Source of the DNA: a virus
Taxonomy: Duplodnaviria; Caudoviricetes
Virus record (IMG/VR): IMGVR_UViG_3300007214_000006
DNA length: 64,000 nt
Direction: 5' to 3' (one strand)
Both the position numbers and the translations under genes were made by a program. Below are positions 1,515-64,000 of the stretch, one piece after another (position 1 is the stretch's first letter; each line of letters starts with the position of its first letter). Under the pieces are notes generated by a model, which was not told the origin of the DNA, made no database searches, and saw only the letters and a program-made list of their open reading frames with translations.

Positions 1515-4500
1515 TTAGGCTTGATCAAAAGGATTAATTAGTGGCGCTCCTGCTGTTTGATTTAATGCTGTTAGTTCAGCAAATTTTTCTCTTATAGAAT
1601 CCATAGCAATATCTTGTAGATCTGGTGATAACTTATTCAATGCAGAATCTCCATTAATTATCACATTATGAGTATGTGTTACTGTTATAGTTATTTCCTG
1701 TGGTATAGCACTTAATCCGGCCAAAGTATCGGCTACGCTCTTAAGTCTATTGGTAAATTCACCAATCTTATTAAGAGTATCCGTATCAATAGATGATACA
1801 CCATTTGTAGTTGTTGTGGTCAAACCGCCACCAATAGCAGAGGATGCGTTTTGAAAACCCGTAGTGATAGCGCTTGTAATTTGGCCAAAGATATCACCCA
1901 TAAAAGAAGATAAATTGAAACTGCTATTATTTGCTGACGTTATACCAGCTGTTTCGTAATAGTTGGGGAATATAATCCCGCCGCCTGATAAATATTTTAC
2001 TATTCCTCCCCTGCTATAGTGGCCTTCATTTATAGCTTTTAGAACAGGTAGGTGCTTTTGAGTAGCAGCCCTATTAACTACAAATTCTCCGGGTGTTAGC
2101 ATCGCAGGAACGGTATCTGTGCCTCTTGGTTGATAATTAACTAATGCTCCTTTGCTAGCATAAACTACCCCTCCGTTTGACATGGTTGCTGTTTGTTGAG
2201 CTGCTTCTTCTGCTTTTTTAGTTTGTTCTTCTTTTAGTGCTCCTGTGGCAATAATTATTTGAGCAACTTGGTTTGCGGTAAGGGTGTCTCTTCCGTTTTC
2301 TAAATTTAATAATGGTTTATAAGATTGTGAAAATTCATTCCAGTTTTTACTACCCTCATCAGATTTCATTGCTTTTAAGGATGTTGCCAGAAATTTATAA
2401 TCAAGAGCTTCGACCCAATTATCGGAACGACCCAGCTCGGTATCGTTTGGCTCACCAGTTGCCATTCCAGTATTAACCAACCGATCAAATTGATGGAAAT
2501 ACCATTGTAGGCTTTCTAATCTGTCTATTTTTTCTTCTCTTAATGCATCAGTAGGAATAATAGATTCTCCGTATTTATTTTTTCCTGATGTATAGAATGA
2601 TATTAATTGATCAAATAGATTAGATCTAGTACCTATATCCGGAAAAACTCTTTGAGGATCAAGAGCTAATTCTCTAACCTTATTCCAACTATCAGGGGTA
2701 ACATCTTTTTCTACCTTGGCCTGTCCTGATGCTCCAAAAGCATAACTATCTCCTTTTGCAACTCCTAATGGATTGCCTTTTTCGTCAACCGGCTGTTCAT
2801 ATGCGGTGCTTGTCATACTGCCTGTTTTAATCATAATTTCTCTATTTATAATAGATTGTAATAATTCAGGAGATGCCCCGGTATAATTTTTGTAATATCT
2901 TATAACATTATTTCCTAAAGTGCTTTTTTCTATTAAAGGCTCACTAAATGCATCGTCCGCCATATTCACACCAAGATTTTGTAATAATTTAGCATCTTTA
3001 TTATTATATATCTCGGCAAATGCTGCCCTCCATGCATCTATACTGTGTCTAGCATAACTATCACTAGGAGCATTGGCGGGAATTTTGGAACTTATTGCAA
3101 TAGCTGTGTTTCCTATATCTGCTATAGTAGTAATGTCTTTTTGTAGTGCTTCCTGCACATTTTTGGGTGATGATGTTTTAGCTAATTTATAGAACGCTCT
3201 AGCCAATGTTATTCTTTTAGCATCATTTACTTTGGCTAATTCGTCCATAGAAAAATCAGACTTAACTGCTGAAATTGCTTTTTCTTTTTCTATTTTATCT
3301 AGATTTTTTTGTCTAGCCTCTAAAAATTTAGAAAAATCATATGGAACCTCGGGATGATCTTCATTAGATAATGTAAAAGGCTCGACATTTGGATATGATG
3401 AAGGATCAAGGAATTGGGTTGTTTTGAAATTTGTTTGCTCTCCAGATAAGATCTTAGTAAGGCTGTTATTTAGGTCGGTTGTCCAAATAACGCTGCCTTG
3501 AGGAATAATGCCACCAGCAAAAGGATTAACAGGACTAATATCGGGTGATTGTGGCTCTATAAAAGCGTACCTTGGGCTTATAGGCTCATCAGTGTATCTA
3601 CGTGAACCCATATTGAATTTAAGGCTTGGAGCTAGATATCTGCGATATGTAAATTGAAGACCATCTTTATTATATTCTTCAATTTTACTATTAACGTTTT
3701 TCTTAACTAGTTCAATATTATCTTGGATATTTCCAAAGACAGAATTATAGTCCTCGGGGGTAAAGCCAGCATCTGTCCAAGCGAAAGATTTAATGTTATT
3801 ATTCGCTAGATCTTTCAGCTTAATAAAGTCATCACCAGTTTCTGAAAAATTAAATGACTTTTGAGCTTTTAATGCTGATATTCGACCAGAATAGTCTGAC
3901 CATTTTTTACTGATATTTTCGTTATAAAGAGTTAATGGACTTTGGTATCCCTCTATTGTTTTATTGAACGGGGCGCTTGGGATAGTGTTATTAAATAAAT
4001 TTTGAAAGTTTGATATTCTCTCTTTATTTTTCAAAGACTCTTCTGTTTCTTTAAATGATTTTTTATCTTTTAAAATAGAATGTGTTGTTGTTAAATTTTC
4101 TTGTAAAATAAAAATTTTATTTAAATAATCGCTTAAATAGGACATAGAGTCACCAAGATCATCAGATACTATCTCTGTTGCAAAATTTTGATTTCGTAAT
4201 GGTTTTGCTGCTATTTTTGGCAAATAGTTTCCTCCTCCTATGTATTCGCCTGCATCAAACGTAACGGTATTAGAATTTCCGGCATTAGCTTTAAATAGAT
4301 CATTGACTTCTGATGGCAGCAATAAAGCCCCATCAGAAATATTAGAAGCAGATTGGGTCAGATTTTTAATCACCCATGTAACCTGATTATTTTTTAGTTT
4401 CTCTTCTTTTCCTGGACTTATTGTACCATCTGCATTACGTATTAAGGACGTTTTAGTATTTTTTGTTGAAACAGAAAAGGATGGTGATGCCTGATTTGGT

Positions 4501-7500
4501 TTTATCTTATTAAGATCATAAATTATTTTATTTTTTCTTGCTGTTATTAATTCACCATTATTTTTATCTATAAAAGGTAGCATTTCTGATATTTTATTTG
4601 TTTTTTCTATAATATCATTTAAAATTGCCGATCCTTCTTCTATGCTTAAAGATGTTGTTTGATTTGTAGCATCGTCAATCCATTTTCTAGATGGAAGCTC
4701 AGTGAATTTTCTGGATAATTTATGTTTACTTTGGAACTTTAATGGCACAGAGTTATTGCTTGTTGATTGAATTTCATCAACACCGGTACCGAGCCCCCAA
4801 AATAAAGATTTTCCTGTTATTAATCTGTTTATATTTTTAGGTCTATTTATATCTTTGTTTTCATATAATTCGTCTGATGATAATAAATCTTCTTGAGATC
4901 TTGAGCTTAAAGCATAACCAATATTATCAAAGAAATAAAATTTTTCTTTTGTAATATCATTAGCGTTAATATATTTCCAATTTATATTATCTAATTTTAT
5001 GCTTTTATTAGTCCTACTTGTCTGTTCGTAATCTCTTTCGGCTTTGTCTTCTCTTTCTTTTTCGTCAGCTATATTTGACCATTTCTCATCTACAGCAACG
5101 TATCCTCCATCAGCATAATATTTTACCCTACCTCCACTACTATATCCTCCACTATTAATTTTATTTAATAACGGTAAATGTTTTTGCGTTGCTGATCGAT
5201 TAACCACAAACTCGCCAGGAGTTAACATAGCAGGAACAGTATCTGTGCCTTTTGGCTGAAAATTTACTAATTGTCCAGCAGCAGCGTATATTATACCTCC
5301 TGAGCTGAAACCGTCTGCTCCCATAGCCCCTGGTTTATTTTCAACAACCTGTCTTAACAGTTTAATTTCGTTTACAACATCGTTTAATTGAGCTCCCTCA
5401 AAGGTAAATTTAAATGTACTCATTACTGATGCAAGTTTTGTGGCCGCTGTTTCTTCGGTATTTTTGGCTATGGCTAAATTTAAAAGACCAAGTTCTTTAT
5501 TTGCAAGTGCCTGTAAATCAACTGCTTTTTTATATTCGGCGATTGCTGCTTGCATCTCAGGGTCACCTTCTGGATTTCTTAATGACTGAAGGACCTCTGC
5601 CATCATAGAATTAACGCCAACACCACTCTCCATAAGCATGCTTTCCAAAACATTAGCTTTCATTTCGTTTTGTTTTTCGCCAAGAAATGGTGCTATCATA
5701 TTAAAAGCATCCAAACTTTCTTTTCTCTGTTCTGCACTACTACCAAAGTTAATTCCGCCCTGCATATTATTATTTAATCTGTCCATTGCCCTATTTAGCT
5801 GACTAAATTCTTGAGGACTACTAGTCACCAGCCTTTCGGCCATATTGACACCGGCCTGTCTTTTTTGTTGTATCTCATTAATCTTGGCCATTGCGATACT
5901 GGCCATTTCGGTATTGTCTGCCATGCTCTTTAATGCGTCATAATTTTCTCTAAGAGCAATATTTGTATTTCTTAGCCTGTCTTGCATTAATTTAAATTCG
6001 TCAGCTCCACCAAAACCTCTTTGGCCAGCAGTATTACTCATGCTTTGTTGAGTTGCTCTTCTATCTTCCAATCTTCTAATATTTTGAGCTATAGCTGCCG
6101 GATCAGTTATTCCTCCAGTTTGACTTCTAACTCCAGCAGTAGCAACGTTCATTTGATCTCTCAAAGATATCTCTTTTCCAAGAACTTTATCCAATTCCAT
6201 TTGACCTCTAATTTGTATATCAGAAGCTCTTCTCATTCTAGAATTAGCTTCTACTTGTAAATCAACCATTTGATTCATGCTATTTGCATAATCATTTAAT
6301 CCATTTTGCCAATGTTCTAATGCTTTGAGTGCTGCTTCTTGTGCTCTTCTTGTAGCATCCATAACTTTTCCAAGTTGAGGAACTTTTTCCATTAAATCTC
6401 CAAAATCTATCTTTTCATCACCCTTTTGTCTAATTTGTCCTATAGCTTCATTGACTTGCTTGCTTAGTTTTGCAGATAAATCTGGCGGTATTTTTAGGTC
6501 TTCGAGTGCTTTTGATATATTGCTTTGTATCCTGATTCCAATTTTTTCATTTCCAGCTGTTGGGTCTTCTTTTATCGTTTTGTTAATAGTTGACATTATA
6601 GTATCTTCTATCGCTCCTCCAGCTTGTAATAATCCTTTCATTGTTGCTGATTCTGATCCAAACATATTGGCTGCATTTTGTGCGGCAGATGCTCTCTCGG
6701 TTTTGTTGTAAGCCCTTGGGTTTTGTAACACATTCATGCTTTTTAACGCAACTTGACCAGCTTTTGCATTTCCAGACAAAGCAGATGCTGATAGCTCTGC
6801 TTGTTGACTTAAATTATTTAATTGAAAAACATTACGTCCAATAGCTTGTTCCATATTCTGAAACATTCTTTCTAAGCTATTTTGTAAATGATTTGCTGAT
6901 CTATTTAGCTCTTCCAAAGATTTTTCTTTTAGGATTTTTGTTTGAATTTCTCTAGCTTTTCTTTCACCGTTTGCTGCTATAATACCAGCGATCATTGCTG
7001 ATTTTTGTTCTTTTTGAATATTTGTGCTATTTTCAATATTCATAATCTGTTCTTGTACAGATGCGTCCGCTAAAGCAAGACTTCTAATAAAGGAGTCGAA
7101 CTGGGGTTTATTTTCTGTCTCCAGATCAGATATAGATGTTCCAGATTTAATATTACTAGTTAAAAATTGTTGAGTAGCCTCTGCTGCCCCACGAAAATCA
7201 GCAGCTCTATCTCTTGACTTTTGTGGAATTAATGTAGAATATTGTCTAGATAATCCTATATCTGACGAAGAGTATCCTAAAGAATTTTTATTGGACATTC
7301 CAAACATGTTTGATATCGGATCTTCTAGTGTTTGTATATACGAGCCAACGCCTTTTGAAAATAATACTTCTGATCTTTTATCTACATTTTCTCCATAATC
7401 AAAAAGATTTGCAAATCCTAATTGAGGTTTATTTTTTGCCGTTATAACATTTTCTGTCTGTCCTATGGTCTGCAATACCTGCGTCCTAGCTGTTTCTTTA

Positions 7501-10500
7501 ACGGATCTATCTTTTAAATTTTCAGAAAATTTTTGTAAACTATTATTTGTTATTTCTATTGATGTCTCTAATTTTTTTTGTTCTGACGATATTGCAAATT
7601 CTCTAGCGGCATTTTCAGCATCAATAAAGGCTTTTGTCAATCCTATTACTGCTGTCGTCACCATTGCAACTGGTCCAGCAAATTTGGCGATACCACCCAT
7701 ACCTTGTGTCATCTCACTAACCATAGACCCCATCATCACAGAGCTGCCTATGGCAGTAGTCGCTCCCTGAGTTAGCGATTGTGATCTTGCTTGACTTGCT
7801 GTTTTTGCTTCTCCTCCAGCAAACAAATCGCCTATCATCGGAATAGCCATACTTAGCATAAAAGCTCTATTCATTGCACTATTTTGTCTATCTCCAGATG
7901 ATCCGGCTGCTACTGCTCTTCCTCCTACAAGCCCACCATTGTTTCTTCTTCTATTCGCAGCATTTCCAGCTAAAATAGCTTGTGAACCAGCACCCCCTCT
8001 ACCAAATCCTGCGTCTATCAAAGCTTGTTTTCTTGCTGCTGGGTCTAATGCCCTAAAACTATCACTTTGAGTTAAATCTCTCATAGAAGCCGATGCTCTA
8101 CGACCAGCTGCAACAGGAGCAATTCTGCTATTGGCAGTTGTTTGAGCATTTCTTGCTTGTTCTTGTGAAGAAAATGGCATTACTCCAATATTTTTTAATG
8201 TGTCTGGTAATACATTAGAAACCAAATTTCTAGCCCTTAATCCAGTTGATCTTATTGCTCCTCCTATTCCTCCAAGTCTATTTTGTCTTATTCGTTGAAT
8301 TTCTTCTTGTCTATCTCGTCTCTTATCACTGGAGTATATACTATCATAATAATCTCTACCAGTTTGATTGCCTCCAGCGCGTCTCTTAGGATTATATCTA
8401 CTAGACGGTCCAGAAACATCAGTCATTATTGTTTTCAAGCCTTGCTTATACTGCATAACTGCTGTTTTTTTTGCTTGTGCTATCTCTTTATCTGATTTTA
8501 ATGACATTTTCATTAATTGATTCGTCACCTGAGCATCAGTTAGATTTACTCCATATTGTTTTAGAGCAGCTTGTTTTATTCTCAGTATTCTTTGATCGAT
8601 ATCTATTGTGTCTGTTGCATATTTTTTTTGTATAGCTTGTATTCTATCGTCTCTTTCTTGACGAATGTTTCTTCTTAATGTTCTAGCCTGTGGTGTTGCT
8701 TCTGCAGTTTGCTGTCTTTGTTGCTGTCTCCTTCTAATTCTGGCTCTAATTTTATCTTCTCTTTGTTGAAGAGCATCTGCTTCTCCAGCTCTTATATCAT
8801 ATGTCATACCAGATCTTATATATTGTCCTGGCTCTAATGGTCTAACAGTTGTTCCTCTCGCAAACTTCTGAACAACTCCACCATTATGATATTTATTTAA
8901 TTTATGGAGATTAGAATATCCTATAGCTTGAGCAGAATGTCTGTTAATAACATACTCGCCCTCTTGGGCCATGATGGGTATTTCTCCACCAGCAGCATAT
9001 CTACCTCTAGCTCTTAAATATTTTTTTTGCTCTGTGGTTCTACCTTCATAATCAGAACTTCCTAGTCCTTGTCTTTGTTTCCATGTTGCTATTCTGTCTT
9101 GTTTTTGCATTATGGAGCCCTGTACCTTTTCAAGCAATCCAGCAGGCCCCGTATAAGGTCTTAAAGATTTTGGCAGCTTTTGGCTTTCACTGGGAATTCC
9201 CCAATCAGTATAAAATAAATCGCCTTTTGCGTTTCTTTTTGTAAATTCAGCTATAGCTTCTTCTGGGGTTAATGTTTTACCAGTAACCTCTCTCATTGCT
9301 TTTACAACATCATCTTTTAAATATTTCGATCCTCCATGAGTTATCAATTCTGGTCCTGATTCAGGAGCGCCTCCCTCGCTTAATTTTTGTACGGCTCCAC
9401 CAAAAGCAAAACCTCTAGCTTTAAGATAATTAGTAATATTGCTGGGTATTTTGCCTCTTGGTCCAGTTAAGGTTCTTTTGGCATCAACGGGAATATTAGC
9501 AAGCAAAGAATTATTAAACCAATTTCTTGCTATGGTTGCGCCAAGACCATAAGGAAAGTCAACGCTTCTATGAATCTCAGCTTCTTGTGCCATTGCCCCA
9601 TATAGTTGGGGCGCAGTTTCTTTAAGATAAGAACTAATTTCATTTTGAAATTTAGCCCCCTGGCTATCTGCTATTGCTTTTTTAGAGGCTCTATCTTTAT
9701 CAAATGTTAGTCCATAAGTATATGATTTGATATTTGATGCTTTTGCGGCCATAATATTTTCTGCAGCATCATCAACAAACACACTCGAAGATGACCCGGC
9801 GGCTTCTAATATTGTGTTTGCTTTTGCTACTCCAACAGCCTTATCTGACATACCGCTTCCACCGACACCTCTAACATTACCAGCCGGTATTGGTAAACCC
9901 TTTGAAGCCAACCATGAGGCAATAGCTCCCATTGTATTTTGAGGTCTAGCACTTACAACATACATATTCGACAATAAAGAAGATAACTGATCTGGCATTC
10001 TCTTTCGAGTTTTATTAACCAAACGCACCAGACCAGACATTAATATGCTGGGTTTTGCTTTCTGTAAGCCTCTGGTTACCAAATCAAGATCACCAAAAGC
10101 TGTATAGTCTGGTTTTGTTCCCTTTTTAGCTTTGTATCCTATTGGATCTGTTTTAAGTGCTAGCGTCTTATCAAAATCAAAAAATGCCTTTGTTCCCGAA
10201 CCGCCAGATAAAGCCTCAAGAATACTTTTTGTTAATCTCTCATTATTTCTTTTTCTAACACCAGATAATTCTTCTCTTGTATATTCTTTATCTAATTTAG
10301 ATGCTATTGGAGCATTTTTTATATCTATATAATTAGGATCATTTAGTTGTAACGATTTTAGTCTTGCGGCTCTAGCTGCTTTATTTTTGTCTAATACGGC
10401 ACCAAAGACTCTAACAGTAACTGGTTCTCTTAATCCCGCGCTTAATACTAACTCTTCTGGTGGAAATGGGTTCCCAAACATACCAACAGCACCAAATAGC

Positions 10501-13412
10501 GTACCAATAGATGCTGCCGCTTGAGTAGCTTGTTGGTTTCCTTCTCTATTTTCGCTTGCTTTCTTATTGATTTTTTCTACATATTTTCTAATAACCAAGC
10601 GTTGAGCATTGGCTTCCATAGGATTTGGATTGCGTTTTCTTAATAGTTCATTTGCTGTAAGATCAACACCAGCGGATCTTAATATATCCTCTACGCCCAA
10701 AGCGGTTAATTCTCCAATTATTTTACTAGCTGGCAATTTTTCAGCATCGGATTCCGTAATATCTGCTAATATTTGCCTGGTTTTTCTTCCTGCTCTAGAT
10801 TTTCGTGGTTTTACAAATTCTCCAGCCATTAATTGTTGTCTATAATTGCTTGATATGTTTCTTGTTCTTTTTGGTCGATACAATAAAGATCTTTCGGTTT
10901 TTTCTATTTCTTCTTGAGATCTATATTCTACTGGTTGTCTTGTTTTTTTATTTTTTAATAAACCAGGAGTAGCATCTTCCATAACAATTAGATCACCAAT
11001 ATTAATATTATTTGGGTTTTTATCTAGTGCAGCAGGTCGTGCCTTATCCGCTATTATTTTTTCACTATTAGATCTTTCAAAAAGAACCGATCCTATTACT
11101 TTATCTAGTAAATCACGAGTTGATACTTGAGCATCTTTACTTTTTACTTCGACAGGAGTATTTCCTGAAATGCTAACACCGTCAACTCTAGAAAACTTAT
11201 TGCCTTTTTCTTGTTTATAGTAACCTAGAACATCTAAAATTCTTTCAAAACCTGTTCCTCTAGCTGAACTACCTTTACTACCTGTAGCTCCTCTATTACC
11301 AATATACATTTCTGTGACTTTTGGATTAATAGTTCTTGCTCTCTCAATTTGTTCTTCGGTTAAAACAACTTTTTGTCTTTTAATATTAGCCTCAATAGTA
11401 TCTTTAAGATTAAATCTCAAAGGTGGATTTTCTCTTCTTTTAATAGCTTTTTCTATACTTTCTCCAGATTTTTTATCATATGTGCTATCTATATTTCTAA
11501 CATATGGGGTGCTACTTTTTAATTGTGCTAATCCTCCTTGAGCAAACTTTTTTCTTCCACTAGCTATATCCGCAATATTAGACGGTCCAATAGTTTGTGT
11601 TGCTGCTTTTCTTATAACAAAACTACCTTCTGGTAAAGTAGTATAGAAACTATCACTATTTCCTTGACCAGGAACAATTCCTATTTTGCCTCCAGCAGCT
11701 TTTCTTTGTCTTTTATCGGCATAATTCATTTTTTTTAGAGTCGAAGTCCCAATACGAGCAGCTTCTTCAGGATATATAACTGCTTCTCCTGGCATAAGAG
11801 CAACAGGAACTCCAACACCTCCTCCTGCGGCATACTTTATATATCCCCCTGATTTTGCCCCACCTGGTCTTAATCCTCTCAAAAATCCTGTACCAAATTG
11901 TCTAATACTGCTAGCTCCTCTAAAAGCTGTCATTATAGCAAGTACAGGCAATACACCCTTAACACTATCTGCAACACTAATCAAAGCGCTAGCTAAACTC
12001 AGTGCTCCTTTTGCTAGTGCTTGGAATGTGTCACTACCTCCTATCTCTCTAAATAAAGCTAAAAATTCTTCTCTAACTTTTGCTGCTTGATTAGCCAAAG
12101 AAGCTTGTGCTTTTGCTGCATCAGCAGCTAATGAGCCTTGTCCTTGTTGAGCAACCCTCAAAGCATCTTGAGCTGTTGCGAACTGTTGAATAAGAGGAAT
12201 AACTTTACCGATTTGTCTGAACCCACCAAGCTCTTCTACAATTTCGCTAAATTTCAAATCTCTTGGATCAATACTATTTAACCCTTCACTTAATAATTGA
12301 ACAGCTTTATATGCCCCAACGAATTTACCCTCTGCGTCTGTTAAGTTAACTCCGAATTCTTTTAGAGCCTCAATCGTTCCGCCTCGTTGAATACGAGTAA
12401 AAATTGTTCTTAAGCCCGTAGCAATAGTTTCTGCGCTTTCACGAGTAGTAGCTCTTACGCTTGTAAAAACAGCAATAAACTCATTTAATGCATCTGTACC
12501 TTCACTAACTCCTCTACTAGCGCTAGCAAACACACCACCAGTTCTTTGAATAGCAGCAATAATATCACTAGCTTCAACAGCAAATTTTGCAGAAACCGCG
12601 TTTACTGCGCCAAGAGATTTTTCTAGATCGTTCGCACTAATTCCGAACTGTCTCATCAAAGCGATACTTCCTTCTACCGTCTGATTCATATTATCAAACG
12701 AAGGAGCCAAGCTACTAAGGGCCAAAGCCTTTAAAGCTCGTTCTGTGTCTCTTGCTGTTAAACCAGCTTGCGCTAATGTTAATGAAACATCTGTTAATTC
12801 ATTTGAACTAACACCCAAAGATGTTGATAACCCACTGATTGTTTTAGCTAGTTGTGATAATCCTGACGCTGATTCTCCAGTAACCTGTTGTAATTTAACA
12901 AATTGTCTATCGTATTCTATAAAAGCATCAATGCCTTTTCTGATAGCATTTGTTAATCCCATTATAGTACCAGCAGATAAACTAAATGCTGTAAATCTTC
13001 TTATTGCCAAGCCTGCTGTTCTCCCGAACTCGATCATTTCTGATGATGCGGCTCTCGTTTGTCTCGCGGTATTAGTCATTCCGGTAGCGGTATTATTAGC
13101 AGCTGCTGCTGTATTATTTAAGTTTCTATTTAATGCCGCAGCACCATTTCCAATAGATGATATTGCAGAACCGAACTGTCTAATAGCATTAGCGGCGTTG
13201 TTTGCATTATTAGTTGTGGCAGAAAGGTTGTTGTTCAGGGTTGTTAGCGCTGAATTTAACGAAGTAATATTTCTGGTGGTCGATGGGTTTATTCTGAGAT
13301 TAACATCACCAGTAACTGTACCTAATTGTCTTCTAATATCAGAAACTATATTTCTAACATTAGATGGTCCCCTAAGATTAATCTGCGCAGTTAAATTAAA
13401 TGCTGTTGCCAT
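1515..13412 (-). CDS. Tail tape measure protein (3965 aa) with embedded cargo domains
   Basis: N-terminal TP901-like TMP core (LQQVTGES...LTLAQAGL...VSAKFAVEASDI...ESAETIATGLRTIFTRI), long helical A/Q/K-rich tracts, repeated GTDTVPAMLTPGEFVVN motifs, and position after tail tube and chaperone genes. Confidence 0.93.
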   Translation of the reverse strand: MATAFNLTAQINLRGPSNVRNIVSDIRRQLGTVTGDVNLRINPSTTRNITSLNSALTTLNNNLSATTNNANNAANAIRQFGSAISSIGNGAAALNRNLNNTAAAANNTATGMTNTARQTRAASSEMIEFGRTAGLAIRRFTAFSLSAGTIMGLTNAIRKGIDAFIEYDRQFVKLQQVTGESASGLSQLAKTISGLSTSLGVSSNELTDVSLTLAQAGLTARDTERALKALALSSLAPSFDNMNQTVEGSIALMRQFGISANDLEKSLGAVNAVSAKFAVEASDIIAAIQRTGGVFASASRGVSEGTDALNEFIAVFTSVRATTRESAETIATGLRTIFTRIQRGGTIEALKEFGVNLTDAEGKFVGAYKAVQLLSEGLNSIDPRDLKFSEIVEELGGFRQIGKVIPLIQQFATAQDALRVAQQGQGSLAADAAKAQASLANQAAKVREEFLALFREIGGSDTFQALAKGALSLASALISVADSVKGVLPVLAIMTAFRGASSIRQFGTGFLRGLRPGGAKSGGYIKYAAGGGVGVPVALMPGEAVIYPEEAARIGTSTLKKMNYADKRQRKAAGGKIGIVPGQGNSDSFYTTLPEGSFVIRKAATQTIGPSNIADIASGRKKFAQGGLAQLKSSTPYVRNIDSTYDKKSGESIEKAIKRRENPPLRFNLKDTIEANIKRQKVVLTEEQIERARTINPKVTEMYIGNRGATGSKGSSARGTGFERILDVLGYYKQEKGNKFSRVDGVSISGNTPVEVKSKDAQVSTRDLLDKVIGSVLFERSNSEKIIADKARPAALDKNPNNINIGDLIVMEDATPGLLKNKKTRQPVEYRSQEEIEKTERSLLYRPKRTRNISSNYRQQLMAGEFVKPRKSRAGRKTRQILADITESDAEKLPASKIIGELTALGVEDILRSAGVDLTANELLRKRNPNPMEANAQRLVIRKYVEKINKKASENREGNQQATQAAASIGTLFGAVGMFGNPFPPEELVLSAGLREPVTVRVFGAVLDKNKAARAARLKSLQLNDPNYIDIKNAPIASKLDKEYTREELSGVRKRNNERLTKSILEALSGGSGTKAFFDFDKTLALKTDPIGYKAKKGTKPDYTAFGDLDLVTRGLQKAKPSILMSGLVRLVNKTRKRMPDQLSSLLSNMYVVSARPQNTMGAIASWLASKGLPIPAGNVRGVGGSGMSDKAVGVAKANTILEAAGSSSSVFVDDAAENIMAAKASNIKSYTYGLTFDKDRASKKAIADSQGAKFQNEISSYLKETAPQLYGAMAQEAEIHRSVDFPYGLGATIARNWFNNSLLANIPVDAKRTLTGPRGKIPSNITNYLKARGFAFGGAVQKLSEGGAPESGPELITHGGSKYLKDDVVKAMREVTGKTLTPEEAIAEFTKRNAKGDLFYTDWGIPSESQKLPKSLRPYTGPAGLLEKVQGSIMQKQDRIATWKQRQGLGSSDYEGRTTEQKKYLRARGRYAAGGEIPIMAQEGEYVINRHSAQAIGYSNLHKLNKYHNGGVVQKFARGTTVRPLEPGQYIRSGMTYDIRAGEADALQQREDKIRARIRRRQQQRQQTAEATPQARTLRRNIRQERDDRIQAIQKKYATDTIDIDQRILRIKQAALKQYGVNLTDAQVTNQLMKMSLKSDKEIAQAKKTAVMQYKQGLKTIMTDVSGPSSRYNPKRRAGGNQTGRDYYDSIYSSDKRRDRQEEIQRIRQNRLGGIGGAIRSTGLRARNLVSNVLPDTLKNIGVMPFSSQEQARNAQTTANSRIAPVAAGRRASASMRDLTQSDSFRALDPAARKQALIDAGFGRGGAGSQAILAGNAANRRRNNGGLVGGRAVAAGSSGDRQNSAMNRAFMLSMAIPMIGDLFAGGEAKTASQARSQSLTQGATTAIGSSVMMGSMVSEMTQGMGGIAKFAGPVAMVTTAVIGLTKAFIDAENAAREFAISSEQKKLETSIEITNNSLQKFSENLKDRSVKETARTQVLQTIGQTENVITAKNKPQLGFANLFDYGENVDKRSEVLFSKGVGSYIQTLEDPISNMFGMSNKNSLGYSSSDIGLSRQYSTLIPQKSRDRAADFRGAAEATQQFLTSNIKSGTSISDLETENKPQFDSFIRSLALADASVQEQIMNIENSTNIQKEQKSAMIAGIIAANGERKAREIQTKILKEKSLEELNRSANHLQNSLERMFQNMEQAIGRNVFQLNNLSQQAELSASALSGNAKAGQVALKSMNVLQNPRAYNKTERASAAQNAANMFGSESATMKGLLQAGGAIEDTIMSTINKTIKEDPTAGNEKIGIRIQSNISKALEDLKIPPDLSAKLSKQVNEAIGQIRQKGDEKIDFGDLMEKVPQLGKVMDATRRAQEAALKALEHWQNGLNDYANSMNQMVDLQVEANSRMRRASDIQIRGQMELDKVLGKEISLRDQMNVATAGVRSQTGGITDPAAIAQNIRRLEDRRATQQSMSNTAGQRGFGGADEFKLMQDRLRNTNIALRENYDALKSMADNTEMASIAMAKINEIQQKRQAGVNMAERLVTSSPQEFSQLNRAMDRLNNNMQGGINFGSSAEQRKESLDAFNMIAPFLGEKQNEMKANVLESMLMESGVGVNSMMAEVLQSLRNPEGDPEMQAAIAEYKKAVDLQALANKELGLLNLAIAKNTEETAATKLASVMSTFKFTFEGAQLNDVVNEIKLLRQVVENKPGAMGADGFSSGGIIYAAAGQLVNFQPKGTDTVPAMLTPGEFVVNRSATQKHLPLLNKINSGGYSSGGRVKYYADGGYVAVDEKWSNIADEKEREDKAERDYEQTSRTNKSIKLDNINWKYINANDITKEKFYFFDNIGYALSSRSQEDLLSSDELYENKDINRPKNINRLITGKSLFWGLGTGVDEIQSTSNNSVPLKFQSKHKLSRKFTELPSRKWIDDATNQTTSLSIEEGSAILNDIIEKTNKISEMLPFIDKNNGELITARKNKIIYDLNKIKPNQASPSFSVSTKNTKTSLIRNADGTISPGKEEKLKNNQVTWVIKNLTQSASNISDGALLLPSEVNDLFKANAGNSNTVTFDAGEYIGGGNYLPKIAAKPLRNQNFATEIVSDDLGDSMSYLSDYLNKIFILQENLTTTHSILKDKKSFKETEESLKNKERISNFQNLFNNTIPSAPFNKTIEGYQSPLTLYNENISKKWSDYSGRISALKAQKSFNFSETGDDFIKLKDLANNNIKSFAWTDAGFTPEDYNSVFGNIQDNIELVKKNVNSKIEEYNKDGLQFTYRRYLAPSLKFNMGSRRYTDEPISPRYAFIEPQSPDISPVNPFAGGIIPQGSVIWTTDLNNSLTKILSGEQTNFKTTQFLDPSSYPNVEPFTLSNEDHPEVPYDFSKFLEARQKNLDKIEKEKAISAVKSDFSMDELAKVNDAKRITLARAFYKLAKTSSPKNVQEALQKDITTIADIGNTAIAISSKIPANAPSDSYARHSIDAWRAAFAEIYNNKDAKLLQNLGVNMADDAFSEPLIEKSTLGNNVIRYYKNYTGASPELLQSIINREIMIKTGSMTSTAYEQPVDEKGNPLGVAKGDSYAFGASGQAKVEKDVTPDSWNKVRELALDPQRVFPDIGTRSNLFDQLISFYTSGKNKYGESIIPTDALREEKIDRLESLQWYFHQFDRLVNTGMATGEPNDTELGRSDNWVEALDYKFLATSLKAMKSDEGSKNWNEFSQSYKPLLNLENGRDTLTANQVAQIIIATGALKEEQTKKAEEAAQQTATMSNGGVVYASKGALVNYQPRGTDTVPAMLTPGEFVVNRAATQKHLPVLKAINEGHYSRGGIVKYLSGGGIIFPNYYETAGITSANNSSFNLSSFMGDIFGQITSAITTGFQNASSAIGGGLTTTTTNGVSSIDTDTLNKIGEFTNRLKSVADTLAGLSAIPQEITITVTHTHNVIINGDSALNKLSPDLQDIAMDSIREKFAELTALNQTAGAPLINPFDQA

Positions 13413-61355: not shown

Positions 61356-61658
61356 GTTGTTTTTTAAAAATAATGATGAATAAAAATACTATTAAAATAG
61401 TACACCTTATCATTTTAAAATAGGTTATGCAGATTGTGTGGGTTTGTGCTCATGGTGCTATGCATCTTATAGATATTAGAAAAATATATCTATGTTACCA
61501 GAATAGTAAGGATCATAAGAATAGTATTATGGGTTTAATAGATAGGATTAGGTGATACTTTTATATTTTTGAGTGCTTATTGTTTATGGATGTCCTTGCG
61601 ATTTTTATAAATACTAGAATATTCAAATAAGAAATGAAAAAACCCCCTAGTTCATATA

Positions 61659-61850
61659 CGCCCGCATTTTTGACGTAAGTTATTGCCTCGCAAGGGTTTG
61701 CGTCAAGTTCAGATAGCAAATGGTGTGCCAAATGGCCAAAAAATGTTTGGCATGATATTTGCTGCTAGCAACCTTACGGTATTGTAAGCAAGATTTTTGT
61801 TGACCTCTCAAGATGGTTTGGTATAATGCCGATATAAGAGAAAAGGGAAA
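61659..61850 (+). repeat. Early regulatory cassette, copy 1 (lacks palindrome A)
   Basis: CGCCCGCATTTTTGA, palindrome B 61674-61702, sigma54-like pair 61715-61731(-)/61747-61763(+), CTTAC-N6-GTAAG, TTGACC-N16-TATAAT (61800-61827). Confidence 0.85.
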
Positions 61851-61853
61851 CAA

Positions 61854-62009
61854 ATGCTCAACATCTACAACGACTACAACGATCCCGATCAAACCTATGA
61901 TGAGAATGTAGAAACTATCTGGATCAGTCCCTGCTGCGGATTCGAGGTAGAAAATACCGAAACCGTTTGCCCAAACTGCGACCATACCATTGTGCCTCTT
62001 GCCTCTTGA
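61854..62009 (+). CDS. Small acidic zinc-ribbon protein (51 aa; not in the ORF track)
   Basis: MLNIYNDYNDPDQTYDENVETIWISPCCGFEVENTETVCPNCDHTIVPLAS, directly after the cassette-1 promoter and RBS. Confidence 0.7.
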   Translation: MLNIYNDYNDPDQTYDENVETIWISPCCGFEVENTETVCPNCDHTIVPLAS

Positions 62010-62060
62010 CTCTGAATCTTTTCTCGGTTAGACTTACCCTAAACCCCAAAGGATAGCATC

Positions 62061-62267
62061 ATGAGCAACGACTTTGTTTACAACATGAGCGAAATCAACG
62101 AAGAGGAAATCGTGAAGGGATGGGATGAAATCAACGACGAGGCGGATTATATTCCGGGTTTGGACGATGGGGAGGGATATGATCCGATCATGGGCGACGA
62201 TGACGAATGGCTCGACACGGACGACGAATGGCTCGACGATTTTCAGGGCGAGGAAGATTTTGCCTGA
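62061..62267 (+). CDS. Highly acidic small protein (DNA-mimic candidate)
   Basis: 27 of 68 residues are D/E, with one K and no R; DDEWLD occurs twice. Confidence 0.7.
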   Translation: MSNDFVYNMSEINEEEIVKGWDEINDEADYIPGLDDGEGYDPIMGDDDEWLDTDDEWLDDFQGEEDFA

Positions 62268-62304
62268 AATAAATATTCCGGCATAGCGTTTGCTGGGCAA
62301 GATC

Positions 62305-62540
62305 GACGTAAAGCCTTACGCTATAAGGACTTACGGCGATTTTTCGCCCGCCGAATCGACGTAAGTTGTTATGCATCAACACTTTACGTTCAATGGCCAC
62401 AGCAAACCTTGTGCCAAAAATACTTTATTCTATGGTACGCTATTTGCTCTCGCAACCTTACGATATTGTAAGGAAAGATTTTGCTTGCAAGTTGAAGATA
62501 GACCCGTATAATGCCGATATAGAAAGAAACGGAGAAAGAA
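62305..62540 (+). repeat. Early regulatory cassette, copy 2
   Basis: Palindromes A 62307-62335 and B 62360-62388, sigma54-like pair 62401-62417(-)/62432-62448(+), TTGCAA-N16-TATAAT (62485-62512), GGAG RBS. Confidence 0.9.
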
Positions 62541-62542
62541 AA

Positions 62543-62779
62543 ATGGAAATGATCGTGGGACAGGTTGCCAAGGTTGAATACGCTACGGGCGAGAAGTTTA
62601 TCGGTGAGATTGTGAAGGTTCGCACGATGCCCGAACAAATCGAGGTTTTCGGCGTTGGCCCTACTGGCGTGTTGCAGAATCGTGTGCTGTTCACGGTTCA
62701 CGACGAGAGCGTAGGCTATCGTTCGCTCTATGTTGACAAGTGTGCTAGAATCGAAACGTTGACCCTTCAAACCCTCTGA
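62543..62779 (+). CDS. Small beta-rich protein (78 aa; start corrected from 62366)
   Basis: MEMIVGQVAKVEYATGEKFIGEIVKV...; ATG 8 nt after GGAG and downstream of the cassette-2 promoter. The longer track ORF runs through the repeat. Confidence 0.7.
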   Translation: MEMIVGQVAKVEYATGEKFIGEIVKVRTMPEQIEVFGVGPTGVLQNRVLFTVHDESVGYRSLYVDKCARIETLTLQTL

Positions 62780-62790
62780 AAAGAAAAAAA

Positions 62791-62991
62791 ATGAGCGTCT
62801 CCGAAATGATCTGCGAACTCGAATCCTATGGTATGATCGTTCAGCGTGTGCCGAACCAACCGAACACTCTGCACGTTGACGGCTACCATCCCCCTCATTG
62901 TAAGGGGTTGCCCGATTGGCTATGGGAATGCCCCGGTTGGGGGGTATCGTCGTGTGGCATTTCAAGGGTATTCCTGTTCAGGGTAGGATAA
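62791..62991 (+). CDS. Hypothetical protein (66 aa)
   Basis: ORF track; follows the previous gene after 11 nt. Confidence 0.55.
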   Translation: MSVSEMICELESYGMIVQRVPNQPNTLHVDGYHPPHCKGLPDWLWECPGWGVSSCGISRVFLFRVG

Positions 62992-63014
62992 CCCCCCATT
63001 AGGGGTACGAGCTT

Positions 63015-63248
63015 GATGTAAAGCCTTACGCTGTAAGGACTTACAACAAGTTTTCGCCCGCATTTTTGACGTAAGTGCTTACAGGATAACGACTTAGAGC
63101 AAATCGCCATAGCAAACAGCATACCAAGGAATAAAAGTTTCTTTGGTACAACTTTTGCTGCTAGTAACCTTACGATATTGTAAGAAAGATTTTGCTTGCA
63201 ATCTAAAGTGACCGCTGTATAATGCCGATATAGAAAGCAAAGGAGAAA
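63015..63248 (+). repeat. Early regulatory cassette, copy 3
   Basis: A 63017-63045, B 63070-63098, sigma54-like pair 63111-63127(-)/63143-63159(+), TTGCAA-N16-TATAAT (63196-63223), AGGAG RBS. Confidence 0.9.
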
Positions 63249-63249
63249 G

Positions 63250-63465
63250 ATGATGAACGAAAATATCAAGAGTGCGATTCGGCAGATTTGGGGAAGCGAG
63301 AGTCACCAGATTTCCCTGCTGCTAACGCCGCAAGGTGTGTTGTATGCCGAGTGCGAGTCTACGATGGATCGTCGCAGGCTCACGGAAAGCAACTACCGTG
63401 AAGTGCTGAACGATATGTTCTACGATTACTGCGTGGAAAACGCGGCTTGGATGGGAGTCTCATGA
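63250..63465 (+). CDS. Hypothetical early protein (71 aa)
   Basis: ORF track; AGGAG RBS; downstream of the cassette-3 promoter. Confidence 0.7.
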   Translation: MMNENIKSAIRQIWGSESHQISLLLTPQGVLYAECESTMDRRRLTESNYREVLNDMFYDYCVENAAWMGVS

Positions 63466-63481
63466 CCACCTACTAGGGGGG

Positions 63482-63510
63482 TTGCGGAGACAAAAAAAGT
63501 TTCGTACACT
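63482..63510 (+). promoter_or_regulatory. Possible weak sigma70-type promoter
   Basis: TTGCGG-N17-TACACT upstream of 63537. Confidence 0.35.
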
Positions 63511-63536
63511 ACATCATCACCAAGAGGAAAAAAGAA

Positions 63537-63866
63537 ATGACCACCAAGTTCAAGATCATCGAAGATGCCAAGCGTCAGGCTCGCATGTGCTTTGTGGGAA
63601 TCGCAATCCCTCACCAGCCTACGCTTGCTGCGGGAGAGTACGGCCCGATTCGTTCGGAAAAGATTCTCAAGTTCAATCGCTCCGCGTTGCGGAATATCGG
63701 CAAGAAAAAGATAGAAAAGGCTGACCCCCGCTTCAAGGGGGGTGACGATCTCATGATCGTGAAGGTTGGCAAGCCCGGCTCCGCCGAAAGGGTGGCCGCT
63801 CTGGCCGAACAGTATGCTGCGATCCTCGCCTGCGGCGAGGAGGTATCCCCCTTCTCGGAGGGGTGA
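63537..63866 (+). CDS. Hypothetical early protein (109 aa)
   Basis: ORF track; GAGG RBS. Confidence 0.7.
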   Translation: MTTKFKIIEDAKRQARMCFVGIAIPHQPTLAAGEYGPIRSEKILKFNRSALRNIGKKKIEKADPRFKGGDDLMIVKVGKPGSAERVAALAEQYAAILACGEEVSPFSEG

Positions 63867-63894
63867 ACAAGCGTACACTAGTGTACAAAGATTC

Positions 63895-64000
63895 GACGTA
63901 AACCCTTGTGGCACAAGGACTTATGGCGATTTTTCGCCCGCATTTTTGACGTAAGTGCTTGTGACATAACGACTTACGTTCAATGCTAATAGCAAACCGC
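63895..64000 (+). repeat. Early regulatory cassette, copy 4 (truncated by the window end)
   Basis: A 63897-63925, B 63950-63978, and the start of the AGCAAA element at 63991, with the same spacings as the other copies. Confidence 0.88.

Follow-up and report, generated by a model that had tools for sequence, protein, structure and literature searches.

Why does one intergenic sequence recur between the small genes at one end of a phage contig, and what are its many parts for? The stretch analysed here, called the window, is 64,000 nucleotides of the phage contig under study (IMG/VR record IMGVR_UViG_3300007214_000006; G000 below, where G001-G003 and L numbers denote related loci). A 240-bp intergenic cassette occurs in it four times, the last copy being truncated where the window stops. 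A further 1,633 bp of contig lie beyond that point and carry the remainder of copy 4, a fifth and diverged copy, and additional simple promoters; window end and tail together hold five cassettes and simple promoters in 4 kb. An earlier note on the window had described these repeats as regulatory cassettes that each head one or two small genes, analogous to the promoter-early stem-loops (PeSLs) of T4-type phages. This description is supported, and all the cassette elements that it listed were found where it had placed them.

All cassettes lie in a GC-richer (~47%) island at the end of a phage contig of 32% GC. The step in composition is sharp and lies 4 kb from the contig end, and no cassette motif was found in the 119-kb AT-rich bulk of the contig.

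61650..64000, on to the contig end (window-equivalent 65633), + strand: start of the small-gene island, ~47% GC, from composition

The island genes are all on the + strand, divergent from the AT-rich late genes on the left. In three of four metagenome runs the tail is present without the AT-rich flank, and the junction is bridged by one metagenome contig (run X3) with 2 mismatches. The same island is present in four complete relatives with genomes of 161-223 kb, where it measures ~18 kb and has 10-11 modules, and in three other relatives it adjoins terminases that are 76-79% identical. Because these relatives and complete genomes carry the same island, the junction is genuine and not an assembly artefact. 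No T4-like match was found among the structural ORFs, and the nearest cultured match of the terminase, in Bacillus siphophages, is only 26% identical. The phage is a large uncultured freshwater phage, not T4-like.

Each cassette is a composite of two imperfect palindromes (A and B), one or two boxes of sigma54 type, a CCTTACG..GTAAGG palindrome and a sigma70-type promoter with a conserved GCCGATAT start region. The elements in the window are as follows.

61672..61700, + strand: cassette 1, palindrome B (motif scan, copy alignment)
61716..61730, - strand: cassette 1, backward sigma54-type -24/-12 box, TGGCAC-N5-TTTGC (box scan)
61748..61762, + strand: cassette 1, forward sigma54-type box, TGGCAT-N5-TTTGC, back-to-back with the backward box
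61773..61788: cassette 1, CTTAC-N6-GTAAG palindrome, centre ~54 bp before the predicted sigma70 start
61800..61835, + strand: cassette 1, sigma70-type promoter TTGACC/16 nt/TATAAT (-35/-10: 61800-61827) and GCCGATAT
62296..62351, + strand: cassette 2, palindrome A (core 62305-62333), hairpin of -20.6 kcal/mol, then TTTTT, then CGCCCGC; predicted terminator of unit 1
62358..62386, + strand: cassette 2, palindrome B, 53 bp after A
62402..62447: cassette 2, back-to-back sigma54-type boxes (- strand 62402-62416; + strand 62433-62447)
62457..62472: cassette 2, CTTAC-N6-GTAAG palindrome
62485..62520, + strand: cassette 2, sigma70-type promoter TTGCAA/16 nt/TATAAT (-35/-10: 62485-62512) and GCCGATAT
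63006..63061, + strand: cassette 3, palindrome A (core 63015-63043), hairpin of -18.8 kcal/mol, then TTTT, CGCCCGC
63068..63096, + strand: cassette 3, palindrome B, 3' arm decayed, without a stable fold
63112..63158: cassette 3, back-to-back sigma54-type boxes (- strand 63112-63126; + strand 63144-63158)
63169..63184: cassette 3, CTTAC-N6-GTAAG palindrome
63196..63231, + strand: cassette 3, sigma70-type promoter TTGCAA/16 nt/TATAAT (-35/-10: 63196-63223) and GCCGATAT
63886..63941, + strand: cassette 4, palindrome A (core 63895-63923), then TTTTT, CGCCCGC
63948..63976, + strand: cassette 4, palindrome B, hairpin of -16 kcal/mol
63992..64000, - strand: cassette 4, backward sigma54-type box, truncated (continues beyond the window)

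Copy 1 has no palindrome A because the island begins there; of the linker only the CGCCCGC end (61659-61665) is kept at the island edge. In copy 4, beyond the window, a TGTCAA-N6-TTGACA palindrome replaces the forward box and the CTTAC palindrome, and is followed by TTGCAA..TATAATGTCGATAT. The backward box is paired with a forward one in the first three copies. The A/B palindromes start at seven + strand sites (61672, 62305, 62358, 63015, 63068, 63895 and 63948) against 0.12 expected per window, TGGYAY-N5-TTGC boxes occur six times in the window, three per strand and all inside cassettes (0.36 expected), and CTTAC-N6-GTAAG is found only at 61773, 62457 and 63169, its centre near -54 relative to the predicted sigma70 start. 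The A-to-B distance is exactly the 53 bp reported earlier in all three copies that have both. Two other distances are as constant as had been claimed, at slightly different values: 43 bp rather than 41 between B (GACGTAA) and AGCAAA in 4/4 copies, the reference base being different, and 74 bp rather than 75 between the TGG of the plus box and TATAAT in 3/3. With such an anatomy, the cassette is indeed more elaborate than a bare repeated promoter.

Are the copies simply recent duplicates? Tandem copies with uniform divergence, which would have spoken against the earlier note, are not what is seen. Pairwise identity among copies is 0.88-0.90 in the 5' arms of the palindromes and 0.93 in the -10 and start region, versus 0.21-0.43 in the palindrome loops (7-bp cores) and 0.47 in the promoter spacer. 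The pattern of conserved motifs and drifting spacers points to functional constraint rather than recent duplication. Beyond the window, besides the fifth copy, the A/B module gave 437 matches, spread over 75 of the sequences searched (G000 and related loci) and mostly in gene-sense orientation, and it is conserved in at least 54 loci. Across the family the two palindromes keep an 11-7-11 layout and the linker sequence is free, while A and B are 53 bp apart in 352 of ~370 pairs (52 bp in 12, 54 bp in 3). This is the only near-invariant spacing family-wide, and the B-to-box distance varies by at least 6 bp in relatives. The proposed helical phasing of four turns between B and the box thus fails in relatives. 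Some relatives fill the A/B slot with a different palindrome pair, CTGCCA-N3-TGGCAG, which looks more like swappable protein-binding sites.

The 3' half of the cassette has the features of a strong early promoter. Each copy matches the sigma70 consensus at 10-11 of 12 positions, and there is a UP-like, A/T-rich AAAGATTTT stretch and a purine-rich leader. In relatives, 178 unique promoters with an RYCGATAT start region lie on the sense strand, 15-30 nt before ATG, versus 1 on the antisense strand. By these marks a strong sigma70-like early promoter and Shine-Dalgarno sequence, as in PeSLs, probably precede the small ORFs. Palindrome A and the linker, listed earlier as the start of the cassette, are present, although part of them is better read in G000 as a hairpin and U-tract terminator of the preceding unit: the three A palindromes fold at -20.6, -18.8 and -14.8 kcal/mol (z-scores -3.6, -4.7 and -2.5) with U4-5 after each. 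Family-wide, the hairpins are weak (means of -10 kcal/mol for A and -6.6 for B), a T-run of at least 4 follows A in 18% and B in 34% of copies, mutual information of the paired palindrome columns is ~0 with no covariation, and Rfam gave no match at E<=1. Since the hairpins are weak family-wide and do not covary, a plain terminator leaves the CGTAA..TT..AA..TTACG pattern and the strict 53 bp unexplained.

The genes between the cassettes are short.

61854..62009, + strand: 51-aa Cys4 zinc-ribbon-like ORF, first gene of unit 1 (no match in a family search)
62006..62034, + strand: simple internal sigma70-type promoter TTGACT/17 nt/TAGACT, without an upstream module
62061..62267, + strand: 68-aa very acidic ORF, second gene of unit 1
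62543..62779, + strand: 78-aa ORF of family F5, behind cassette 2
62791..62991, + strand: 66-aa putative ORF, second gene of unit 2
63250..63465, + strand: 71-aa ORF of family F2
63537..63866, + strand: 109-aa ORF of family F1

Most island ORFs have no family match; one small gene matches Kyano_Gp96. The acidic 68-aa protein and the zinc ribbons are plausible candidates for host takeover or anti-defence. No other island gene is as well conserved as F1, which has at least 208 relatives in IMG/VR. It closes its unit, directly before a module, in G000-G003; most gene orders of the wider family, though not all, have a strict module behind it.

The units are heavily shuffled among phages, as had been supposed. 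The 65 related loci show 57 different gene orders, and F1 alone has at least 20 different right-hand neighbours. The probability that a neighbour is kept is 0.10 across a module versus 0.21 elsewhere. In one clean case, the loci L016 and L024 are 92-96% identical and are set apart by precisely one 367-bp unit, which reaches from module to module; L024 retains a single module there, a chimera that matches the left parent up to B and the right parent after B. Metagenome contigs of the G000 stretch also jump by 690 and 1607 bp from one cassette to the equivalent position in another, at joints that are weak, with sides of 20-21 nt. Synteny breaks are also frequent away from strict modules, and other indels between close relatives have their end points outside modules. 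Tyrosine, serine and Y1 recombinases (PF00589, PF00239, PF01797) were searched for with positive controls and none was found in G000 and the four complete relatives; neither were genes for sigma54, an enhancer-binding ATPase or a Fis-type HTH protein in these four. With these results and the variable 7-bp cores, the multi-protein regulatory or recombination platform suggested in the earlier note is not directly supported.

We consider it probable that these are cassettes of the PeSL kind, each an insulating terminator and promoter, that recombine by homology in a phage outside the T4 group and bear extra palindromic and sigma54-type sites. The 240-bp repeats would be the boundary cassettes of an island of early or accessory small genes. 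Their 5' half would close the preceding transcription unit with palindrome A, a long imperfect hairpin with a U4-5 tract in G000, followed exactly 53 bp later, across the GC-rich linker, by palindrome B. Their 3' half would open the next unit with a strong host sigma70-type promoter, made up of the A/T-rich UP-like stretch, a -35 element, a 16-17 nt spacer, TATAAT, the GCCGATAT start region and the purine-rich leader. Two inserts that lie between these halves appear to be optional: a sigma54-type -24/-12 box aimed back at the previous unit, with its forward partner in copies 1-3, and the CCTTACG..GTAAGG palindrome locked ~54 bp before the sigma70 start. The conserved cassette sequences recur every 0.4-1 kb and are therefore patches of homology, between which general recombination could delete, insert and swap self-contained, transcriptionally insulated units. 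We infer that the cassettes start and end transcription, and that shared sequence, not a dedicated enzyme, drives their recombination. The sigma54-type boxes are a part of the cassette that a terminator-promoter reading does not explain.

An unlikely alternative that makes these boxes central is dual sigma70/sigma54 control, with TGGCAC-N5-TTGC boxes as true binding sites of the host RpoN holoenzyme. The forward box, 61 nt before the sigma70 start, would serve as an enhancer-dependent promoter. The activator sites would be palindromes A and B, which stand five turns from each other at ~87 and ~140 bp upstream of this promoter. The backward box would hold an inactive closed complex as a roadblock or insulator, or give a short antisense RNA over B and A. 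An inactive sigma54 holoenzyme that sits on DNA, often at odd places, has precedent (PMC4591121). The boxes are bipartite and contain GG-N10-GC within TGGCAC-N5-TTGC (family consensus TTTGGCAC..ATTTGCT); their -24 and -12 parts are conserved, and the N5 is free and not complementary between paired boxes. Besides their excess in the window, they concentrate in the island of complete relatives. Homologues of F5 and F3 in relatives lie 47-51 nt behind single forward boxes (F5 in G002 and G003 at 47 nt, in place of a sigma70 promoter), and these boxes are preceded at ~87 nt by GTAGCA-N3-TGCTAC palindromes. Two palindromes of this kind and a sigma54 promoter also lie beside an NtrC-type activator gene in a bacterial MAG. 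However, G000 has no GTAGCA-N3-TGCTAC site, and sigma54, its activator and a Fis-type HTH protein, not found in the four complete relatives, would all have to be supplied by the host. A and B stand at distances from the forward box that suit an activator, yet mostly occur without boxes (~260 of 437 modules have none), and the box-to-B spacing varies. Two of the three forward boxes in the window read TGGTAC, and in the sampled loci a forward box lies at promoter distance from only 12 genes, versus 108 genes with sigma70-type promoters. The paired boxes are also similar to the CTGCCA-N3-TGGCAG palindromes found in relatives, and their reader could thus be another dimeric protein.

It is similarly doubtful that the family runs a dedicated cassette system, in which junctions actively insulate, regulate and perhaps promote early-gene exchange instead of being passive patches of homology. 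Unit junctions would then be marked by a protein-binding palindrome pair with fixed geometry around a GC-rich linker. An unrecognised protein of phage or host would read lineage-specific palindromes (CGTAA..TTACG or CTGCCA-N3-TGGCAG), and host RpoN holoenzyme would be parked at the back-pointing -24/-12 boxes as insulator or switch.

Much less likely is a site-specific system, integron-like or dif-module-like, in which A and B are crossover or synapsis sites of a dedicated, as yet unrecognised recombinase of phage or host and units move as circles. The 11-7-11 geometry, a rigid 53-bp pairing kept over hundreds of copies despite a free linker, the alternative palindrome types that other lineages put in the same slot and the crossover inside B at the resolved natural junction would suit it. 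That junction is a single case, though, and no tyrosine, serine or Y1 recombinase is encoded in the four complete genomes. The 7-bp cores are the least conserved part and differ between copies, which is incompatible with strand exchange across a common overlap, and the other indels of close relatives end outside modules.

We give equally little credence to an RNA-level element, in which A, the linker and B (with the paired boxes) act as folded RNA at the 3' ends of unit transcripts or as antisense RNA, for example as processing sites, REP-like 3' stabilisers or put/nut-like antitermination signals. Most elements in G000 fold well above shuffled controls, and the modules have a preferred orientation relative to genes. 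A:C mismatches outnumber G:T (819 versus 494), which slightly favours pairing in an antisense RNA, and on the minus strand B folds more stably (p = 6e-5). The 3' arm of A and the 5' arm of B are complementary at 2.68 of 4 positions versus 2.26 in shuffles, but this excess looks like two linked sub-family haplotypes. The lack of an Rfam match and of covariation, the weak hairpins across the family and a linker without conserved fold also disfavour folded RNA; specific stem bases are conserved and loops are free, the opposite of most protein-recognised hairpins. Finally, an assembly chimera of AT-rich phage and unrelated GC-richer DNA, which the sharp GC step and the runs without the AT-rich flank might suggest, or recent neutral tandem duplication is scarcely credible, already contradicted by the island in complete relatives and beside the related terminases, the bridging contig, the contrast of motifs and spacers and the conservation in at least 54 loci.

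Early or host-takeover regions of SPO1, T5 and T7 contain many small genes behind a row of strong host-type early promoters and terminators, and that of T7 has intergenic hairpins as well. The island resembles them in its small-gene block with predicted host-type promoters and terminators; a repeated double palindrome at fixed spacing or sigma54-type boxes are not known there. Integron attC and Xer dif sites are similar in that imperfect 11-7-11-like palindromes bound small gene cassettes of variable order, whereas here there is no recombinase gene, the cores vary, each unit has its own promoter, and the junction evidence fits homology-driven exchange. REP/BIME elements (REPINs) share imperfect palindrome pairs, a fixed-length linker, a place at 3' ends of transcription units and many copies. 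In contrast, the present elements are in a phage in which no RAYT/Y1 transposase was found, stand in tandem register rather than as one long hairpin, and are coupled to promoters. Enhancer-dependent sigma54 promoters of the glnAp2/NtrC type are matched by the GG-N10-GC boxes, by the palindromic sites ~87-130 bp upstream and short leader to ATG in relatives, and by the identical site layout in the bacterial MAG. The boxes of the window differ in being back-to-back, one aimed away from any gene, and in that the forward box lies ~100 nt before ATG, upstream of a sigma70 promoter, in a phage with neither the GTAGCA-N3-TGCTAC sites nor a recognised activator or sigma54 gene.

The closest counterpart is the PeSL, known from the T4-type phages RB49/phi1, PST/T4 and nt-1/KVP40, in which exchange of units by recombination between cassettes was shown experimentally (PMC2839356, PMC4122927). 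Both are dispersed intergenic cassettes in a hyperplastic region of small ORFans. In both, a stem-loop that belongs to the preceding unit (a predicted one here) is followed by an A/T-rich stretch, then by a strong early promoter of sigma70 type and a Shine-Dalgarno sequence. In both, close relatives differ by a unit with two flanking cassettes versus one chimeric cassette, and no dedicated recombinase is known. The cassettes described here, known from sequence, differ in their carrier, which is not a T4-type myovirus, in being ~4x longer and in their confinement to one GC-richer island. They have two fixed-sequence imperfect palindromes at a fixed 53 bp in place of a single G/C-rich stem-loop, and sigma54-type boxes and a promoter-locked palindrome are added. 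The carriers form a large, widespread family of uncultured freshwater phages (160-220 kb, at least 208 related contigs), whose hundreds of junctions offer a ready natural resource for studying the shuffling of anti-host genes by phages. The PeSL idea of self-contained terminator-promoter cassettes that make early accessory genes exchangeable would extend beyond T4-type phages. Two features go beyond the known PeSL model: the double palindrome, whose 53-bp spacing is almost never broken, and the many sigma54-type boxes, from which it seems that the RpoN polymerase of the host may be used, or deliberately occupied, by lytic phages.

The repeated cassette at the right end of the window is confirmed and lies far beyond chance. 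Four cassettes fall within the window, which spans 57333-121332 on an IMG/VR phage contig of 122,965 bp with a completeness rating of 82%. The last one is truncated by the window end; the contig supplies the remainder of copy 4 and, past the window, a diverged copy 5 and simple promoters of the same type. On the plus strand of this region seven A/B palindromes were found against 0.12 expected per window, the cassettes contain six sigma54-type boxes (TGGYAY-N5-TTGC) against 0.36 expected, and each sigma70-type pair of hexamers agrees with the consensus at 10-11 of 12 positions. The A-to-B distance is 53 bp in all three copies, as first described. Two further spacings had been reported, 41 bp from B to AGCAAA and 75 bp from the forward box to TATAAT. 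Their constancy stands (4/4 and 3/3), while the values become 43 bp by our reference base and 74 bp by our count. The constant 74-75 bp results from adding two distances that are each locked, 24 from box to palindrome and 51 from palindrome to -10. The described contrast between motif and spacer was upheld and divergence is not uniform: pairwise identity among copies is 0.88-0.90 in the palindrome 5′ arms, 0.93 in the -10 plus start region and 0.78 in the backward box, against 0.21-0.43 in the two 7-nt palindrome cores and 0.47 in the promoter spacer.

The contig has about 32% GC and switches sharply to about 47% at window position 61650, where large minus-strand genes on the left give way to solely small plus-strand ORFs on the right. 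This GC-richer tail takes up the rest of the contig, which ends 1,633 bp past the window. When the contig was searched for TTCGCCCGC, GACGTAAG, CTTAC-N6-GTAAG, TGGYAY-N5-TTGC (either strand) and TATAATGCCGATAT, all cassette motifs were confined to the tail, with none in the 119-kb bulk. An Rfam scan of the tail gave no match, and among ten island ORFs compared with Pfam and PHROGs only one had a match.

Window 61650 to contig end; 142-160 kb of related contig G008; 155 kb through 12 kb of related contig G009: GC-richer island
Window 62061-62267, plus strand: very acidic 68-aa ORF with a DDEWLD duplication, without family match
L095:4543-4854 (window-equivalent 64710-65021), plus strand: 103-aa ORF, the sole match (Pfam Kyano_Gp96, E 2e-10; phrog_554)
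Window 1515-13412, minus strand: 3,965-aa ORF

The 103-aa ORF is a small gene that T4-like cyanophages also have, although the remainder of the phage is not T4-like. A taxonomy search with structural ORFs gave no useful family, the best cultured terminase being only 26% identical. The acidic 68-aa ORF looks like a small early protein of the DNA-mimic or anti-defence kind.

The cassette is not restricted to this contig. A cassette-derived pattern matched contigs from other metagenomes, and three contig groups (G001/G005, G002 and G003) share the A-linker-B module and have terminases 76-79% identical to that of the window. A search of IMG/VR with F1, the 109-aa protein that is best conserved in the island, gave at least 208 related places, and four of the contigs are rated complete (161-223 kb). 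In two of these, examined over their whole length, a single island of about 18 kb and 42-46% GC stands in a genome of 33-35% GC, and 10-11 modules fall within or next to it. The AT/GC junction is bridged, with 2 mismatches, by one contig from public freshwater metagenomes. Thus, an assembly chimera is ruled out by the relatives that carry the module, the junction-bridging contig and the islands in complete genomes. Other metagenome runs contain the tail at 90-99% identity without the AT-rich flank of our contig, and no protein similarity between the flanks was found. This fits an island that related phages share while differing in the genes next to it. No RNA run was found to contain the tail stretch.

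Throughout the phage family, a single island of about 18 kb at 42-47% GC, against 32-35% elsewhere, holds all small plus-strand genes, a gap of 12-15 points inside one lytic-type genome. In G008 and G009 the recorded "direct terminal repeats" measure 123 and 127 bp, as an assembly k-mer overlap would. They point to circular assemblies, carry no information on physical genome ends and do not show that the island is terminal.

Family comparison resolves the cassette into a composite of separable parts. An A-linker-B profile has 437 non-overlapping matches, spread over 75 of the sequences searched, mostly in gene-sense orientation, and about 119 of them also have the backward box. Consecutive pairs of the core TAA-N4-YT-N7-AW-N4-TTR are 53 bp apart in 352 cases, 52 bp in 12 and 54 bp in 3. 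The 28-nt linker is 68% GC and folds no better than shuffles.

For the palindromes themselves, double-stranded protein-binding sites fit the sequences better than RNA hairpins. In our contig palindrome A folds at -20.6, -18.8 and -14.8 kcal/mol (z-scores -3.6, -4.7 and -2.5), with four or five U behind it, in keeping with a predicted terminator of the preceding unit. Family-wide, mean fold energies are -10 (A) and -6.6 kcal/mol (B), a T-run follows A in 18% and B in 34% of copies, and a plain terminator does not explain the pattern. Covariation is absent from both hairpins (mutual information of paired columns about 0), and two mismatches within the stem are themselves conserved. The kept bases are CGTAA, TT, AA and TTACG, with a free loop. 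Complementarity between the A 3′ arm and the B 5′ arm is 2.68 of 4 against 2.26 in shuffles, an excess that looks like two linked sub-family haplotypes. Mismatches are A:C in 819 cases vs G:T in 494, and in a strand test for RNA pairing B was slightly stabler on the minus strand, a small effect. In seven loci A and B are replaced by 36 pairs of another palindrome around a 13-14 nt GC-rich linker.

L045, L061, L078, L079, L080, L094 and L052 (e.g., right after the F1 stop, locus position about 4330): CTGCCA-N3-TGGCAG pairs

Half-sites that are conserved and symmetric about a free centre, together with rigid pairing and swappable site types, would favour sites bound by protein. L017 is a hybrid with one CGTAA..TTACG and one CTGCCA-N3-TGGCAG palindrome. 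The F1 gene is often directly before the module. That F1 might bind the palindromes is a guess, since its AlphaFold model is of medium confidence (pLDDT 73, pTM 0.36) and has no PDB match at E<=0.001. An IHF-like reading of the TAA-N4-TTG half-sites agrees with the consensus at only 6 of 9 positions. A small perfect palindrome, GTACAC-TA-GTGTAC, lies at window 63876-63889, past the F1 stop codon and ahead of palindrome A; many family phages have equivalents in this gap, with variants GTACA..TGTAC and GTATAC.

Another palindrome, CCTTACG-N4-TTGTAAGG, is present in 85 units at a fixed position relative to the promoter, with the -35 element at +29, the -10 at +51 and its centre about 54 bp upstream of the predicted start; it often comes right after B with no boxes between. 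The promoter pattern (TTGACA/TTGCAA, 16-17 nt, TATAAT/TAGAAT, RYCGATAT) is found 178 times uniquely in sense and once in antisense in the family, and these RYCGATAT-type sigma70 promoters are 15-30 nt upstream of ATG.

The boxes could be read as sigma54 promoters. They are bipartite, with TGGCA and TTGC conserved; the middle five bases are free, and those of paired boxes do not complement each other, so that the pairs are not simply hairpin stems. Related loci have 122 sense and 145 antisense boxes, and in complete genomes boxes concentrate in the island. A subset of sense boxes in relatives, which lie 45-50 nt before ATG and are preceded by GTAGCA-N3-TGCTAC palindromes at a distance of about 87 nt, looks in sequence like textbook enhancer-dependent promoters. 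These head homologues of island families F5 (G002/G003) and F3 (G001), which in the window are headed by sigma70 promoters; the promoter type switches between phages in five gene families. However, the window itself speaks against the sigma54 reading: our contig has no GTAGCA-N3-TGCTAC palindrome, one box of every pair faces away from any gene, and the forward boxes are about 100 nt before ATG, two of them reading TGGTAC. The phages also lack genes for sigma54, its activator ATPase and Fis-type HTH proteins; with working controls, no sigma54 activator domain, sigma54 DNA-binding domain or HTH_8 was found in our contig and four complete relatives. In relatives the backward box is 25-31 nt from B and is therefore not phase-locked. 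Sigma54 holoenzyme is known to occupy many sites outside promoters without being active (PMC4591121). A roadblock or parking role at the boxes would be conceivable.

A scan of a bacterial genome collection for the relatives' enhancer-plus-promoter layout gave six matches, near chance level. One is convincing, although not proof of host, in a Pseudobdellovibrionaceae MAG (L117) with an adjacent NtrC-type gene.

L117:4975-5069, minus strand: two TGTAGCA-N3-TGCTACA palindromes and a TGGCACGGGTCTTGC promoter
L117:5117-6631, plus strand, and L117:1435-4853, minus strand: flanking ORFs

The palindromes, of the type found upstream of sigma54-type promoters in relatives of our contig, and the sigma54 promoter sit in the gap that separates a divergently oriented NtrC-type activator gene from a response-regulator/hybrid-kinase operon. 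This arrangement means that the GTAGCA-N3-TGCTAC site type exists as a bacterial enhancer.

Gene content between modules varies strongly. The 65 loci around F1 have 57 gene orders, with at least 20 different neighbours on each side of F1, and small gene blocks, mostly module-bounded, recur at different places. A right-hand neighbour is kept in another phage with probability 0.10 across a strict module and 0.21 without one. The clearest case is that of L016 and L024 (92-96% identical): in L016 one small gene lies between two modules that are 367 bp apart, where L024 has a single module. From the upstream gene end over A and linker to the B 5′ arm, the L024 module equals the left one of L016, and after B it matches the right one. 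This is the pattern described for deletion and insertion mediated by PeSL, the promoter-early stem-loop cassettes of T4-type phages (PMC2839356). With these gene orders and this chimeric module, the inference of exchangeable units in the earlier note holds. On the window stretch, metagenome contigs skip from cassette 1 to 2 and from 2 to 4 at equivalent positions, a weak signal with 20-21 nt on one side. Other close-relative indels have end points outside modules. L047 and L050 (97% identical) differ by a segment of about 1.06 kb between copies of a direct repeat distinct from the A/B module; thus, other island repeats also serve as recombination end points.

L047:4785-4844; L050:4786-4845 and 5904-5963: 60-nt direct repeat

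Neither Y1 transposase, tyrosine integrase nor resolvase was found in our contig and four complete relatives, where controls worked. Because complete relatives lack tyrosine, serine and Y1 recombinases and the 7-bp cores are variable, homology-driven exchange of units is the simpler mechanism. The "multi-protein or recombination platform" once suggested for the cassettes is unproven.

Taken together, the best-supported reading, somewhat more probable than not, is that the cassettes are PeSL-like elements of a non-T4 phage family, in which a terminator/insulator joined to a promoter drives small early or accessory genes and makes them exchangeable. The analogy with PeSL that had been drawn at the outset holds. 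Two features are outside the PeSL model: the near-invariant 53-bp double palindrome with its lineage-specific alternatives, and the abundant sigma54-type boxes.
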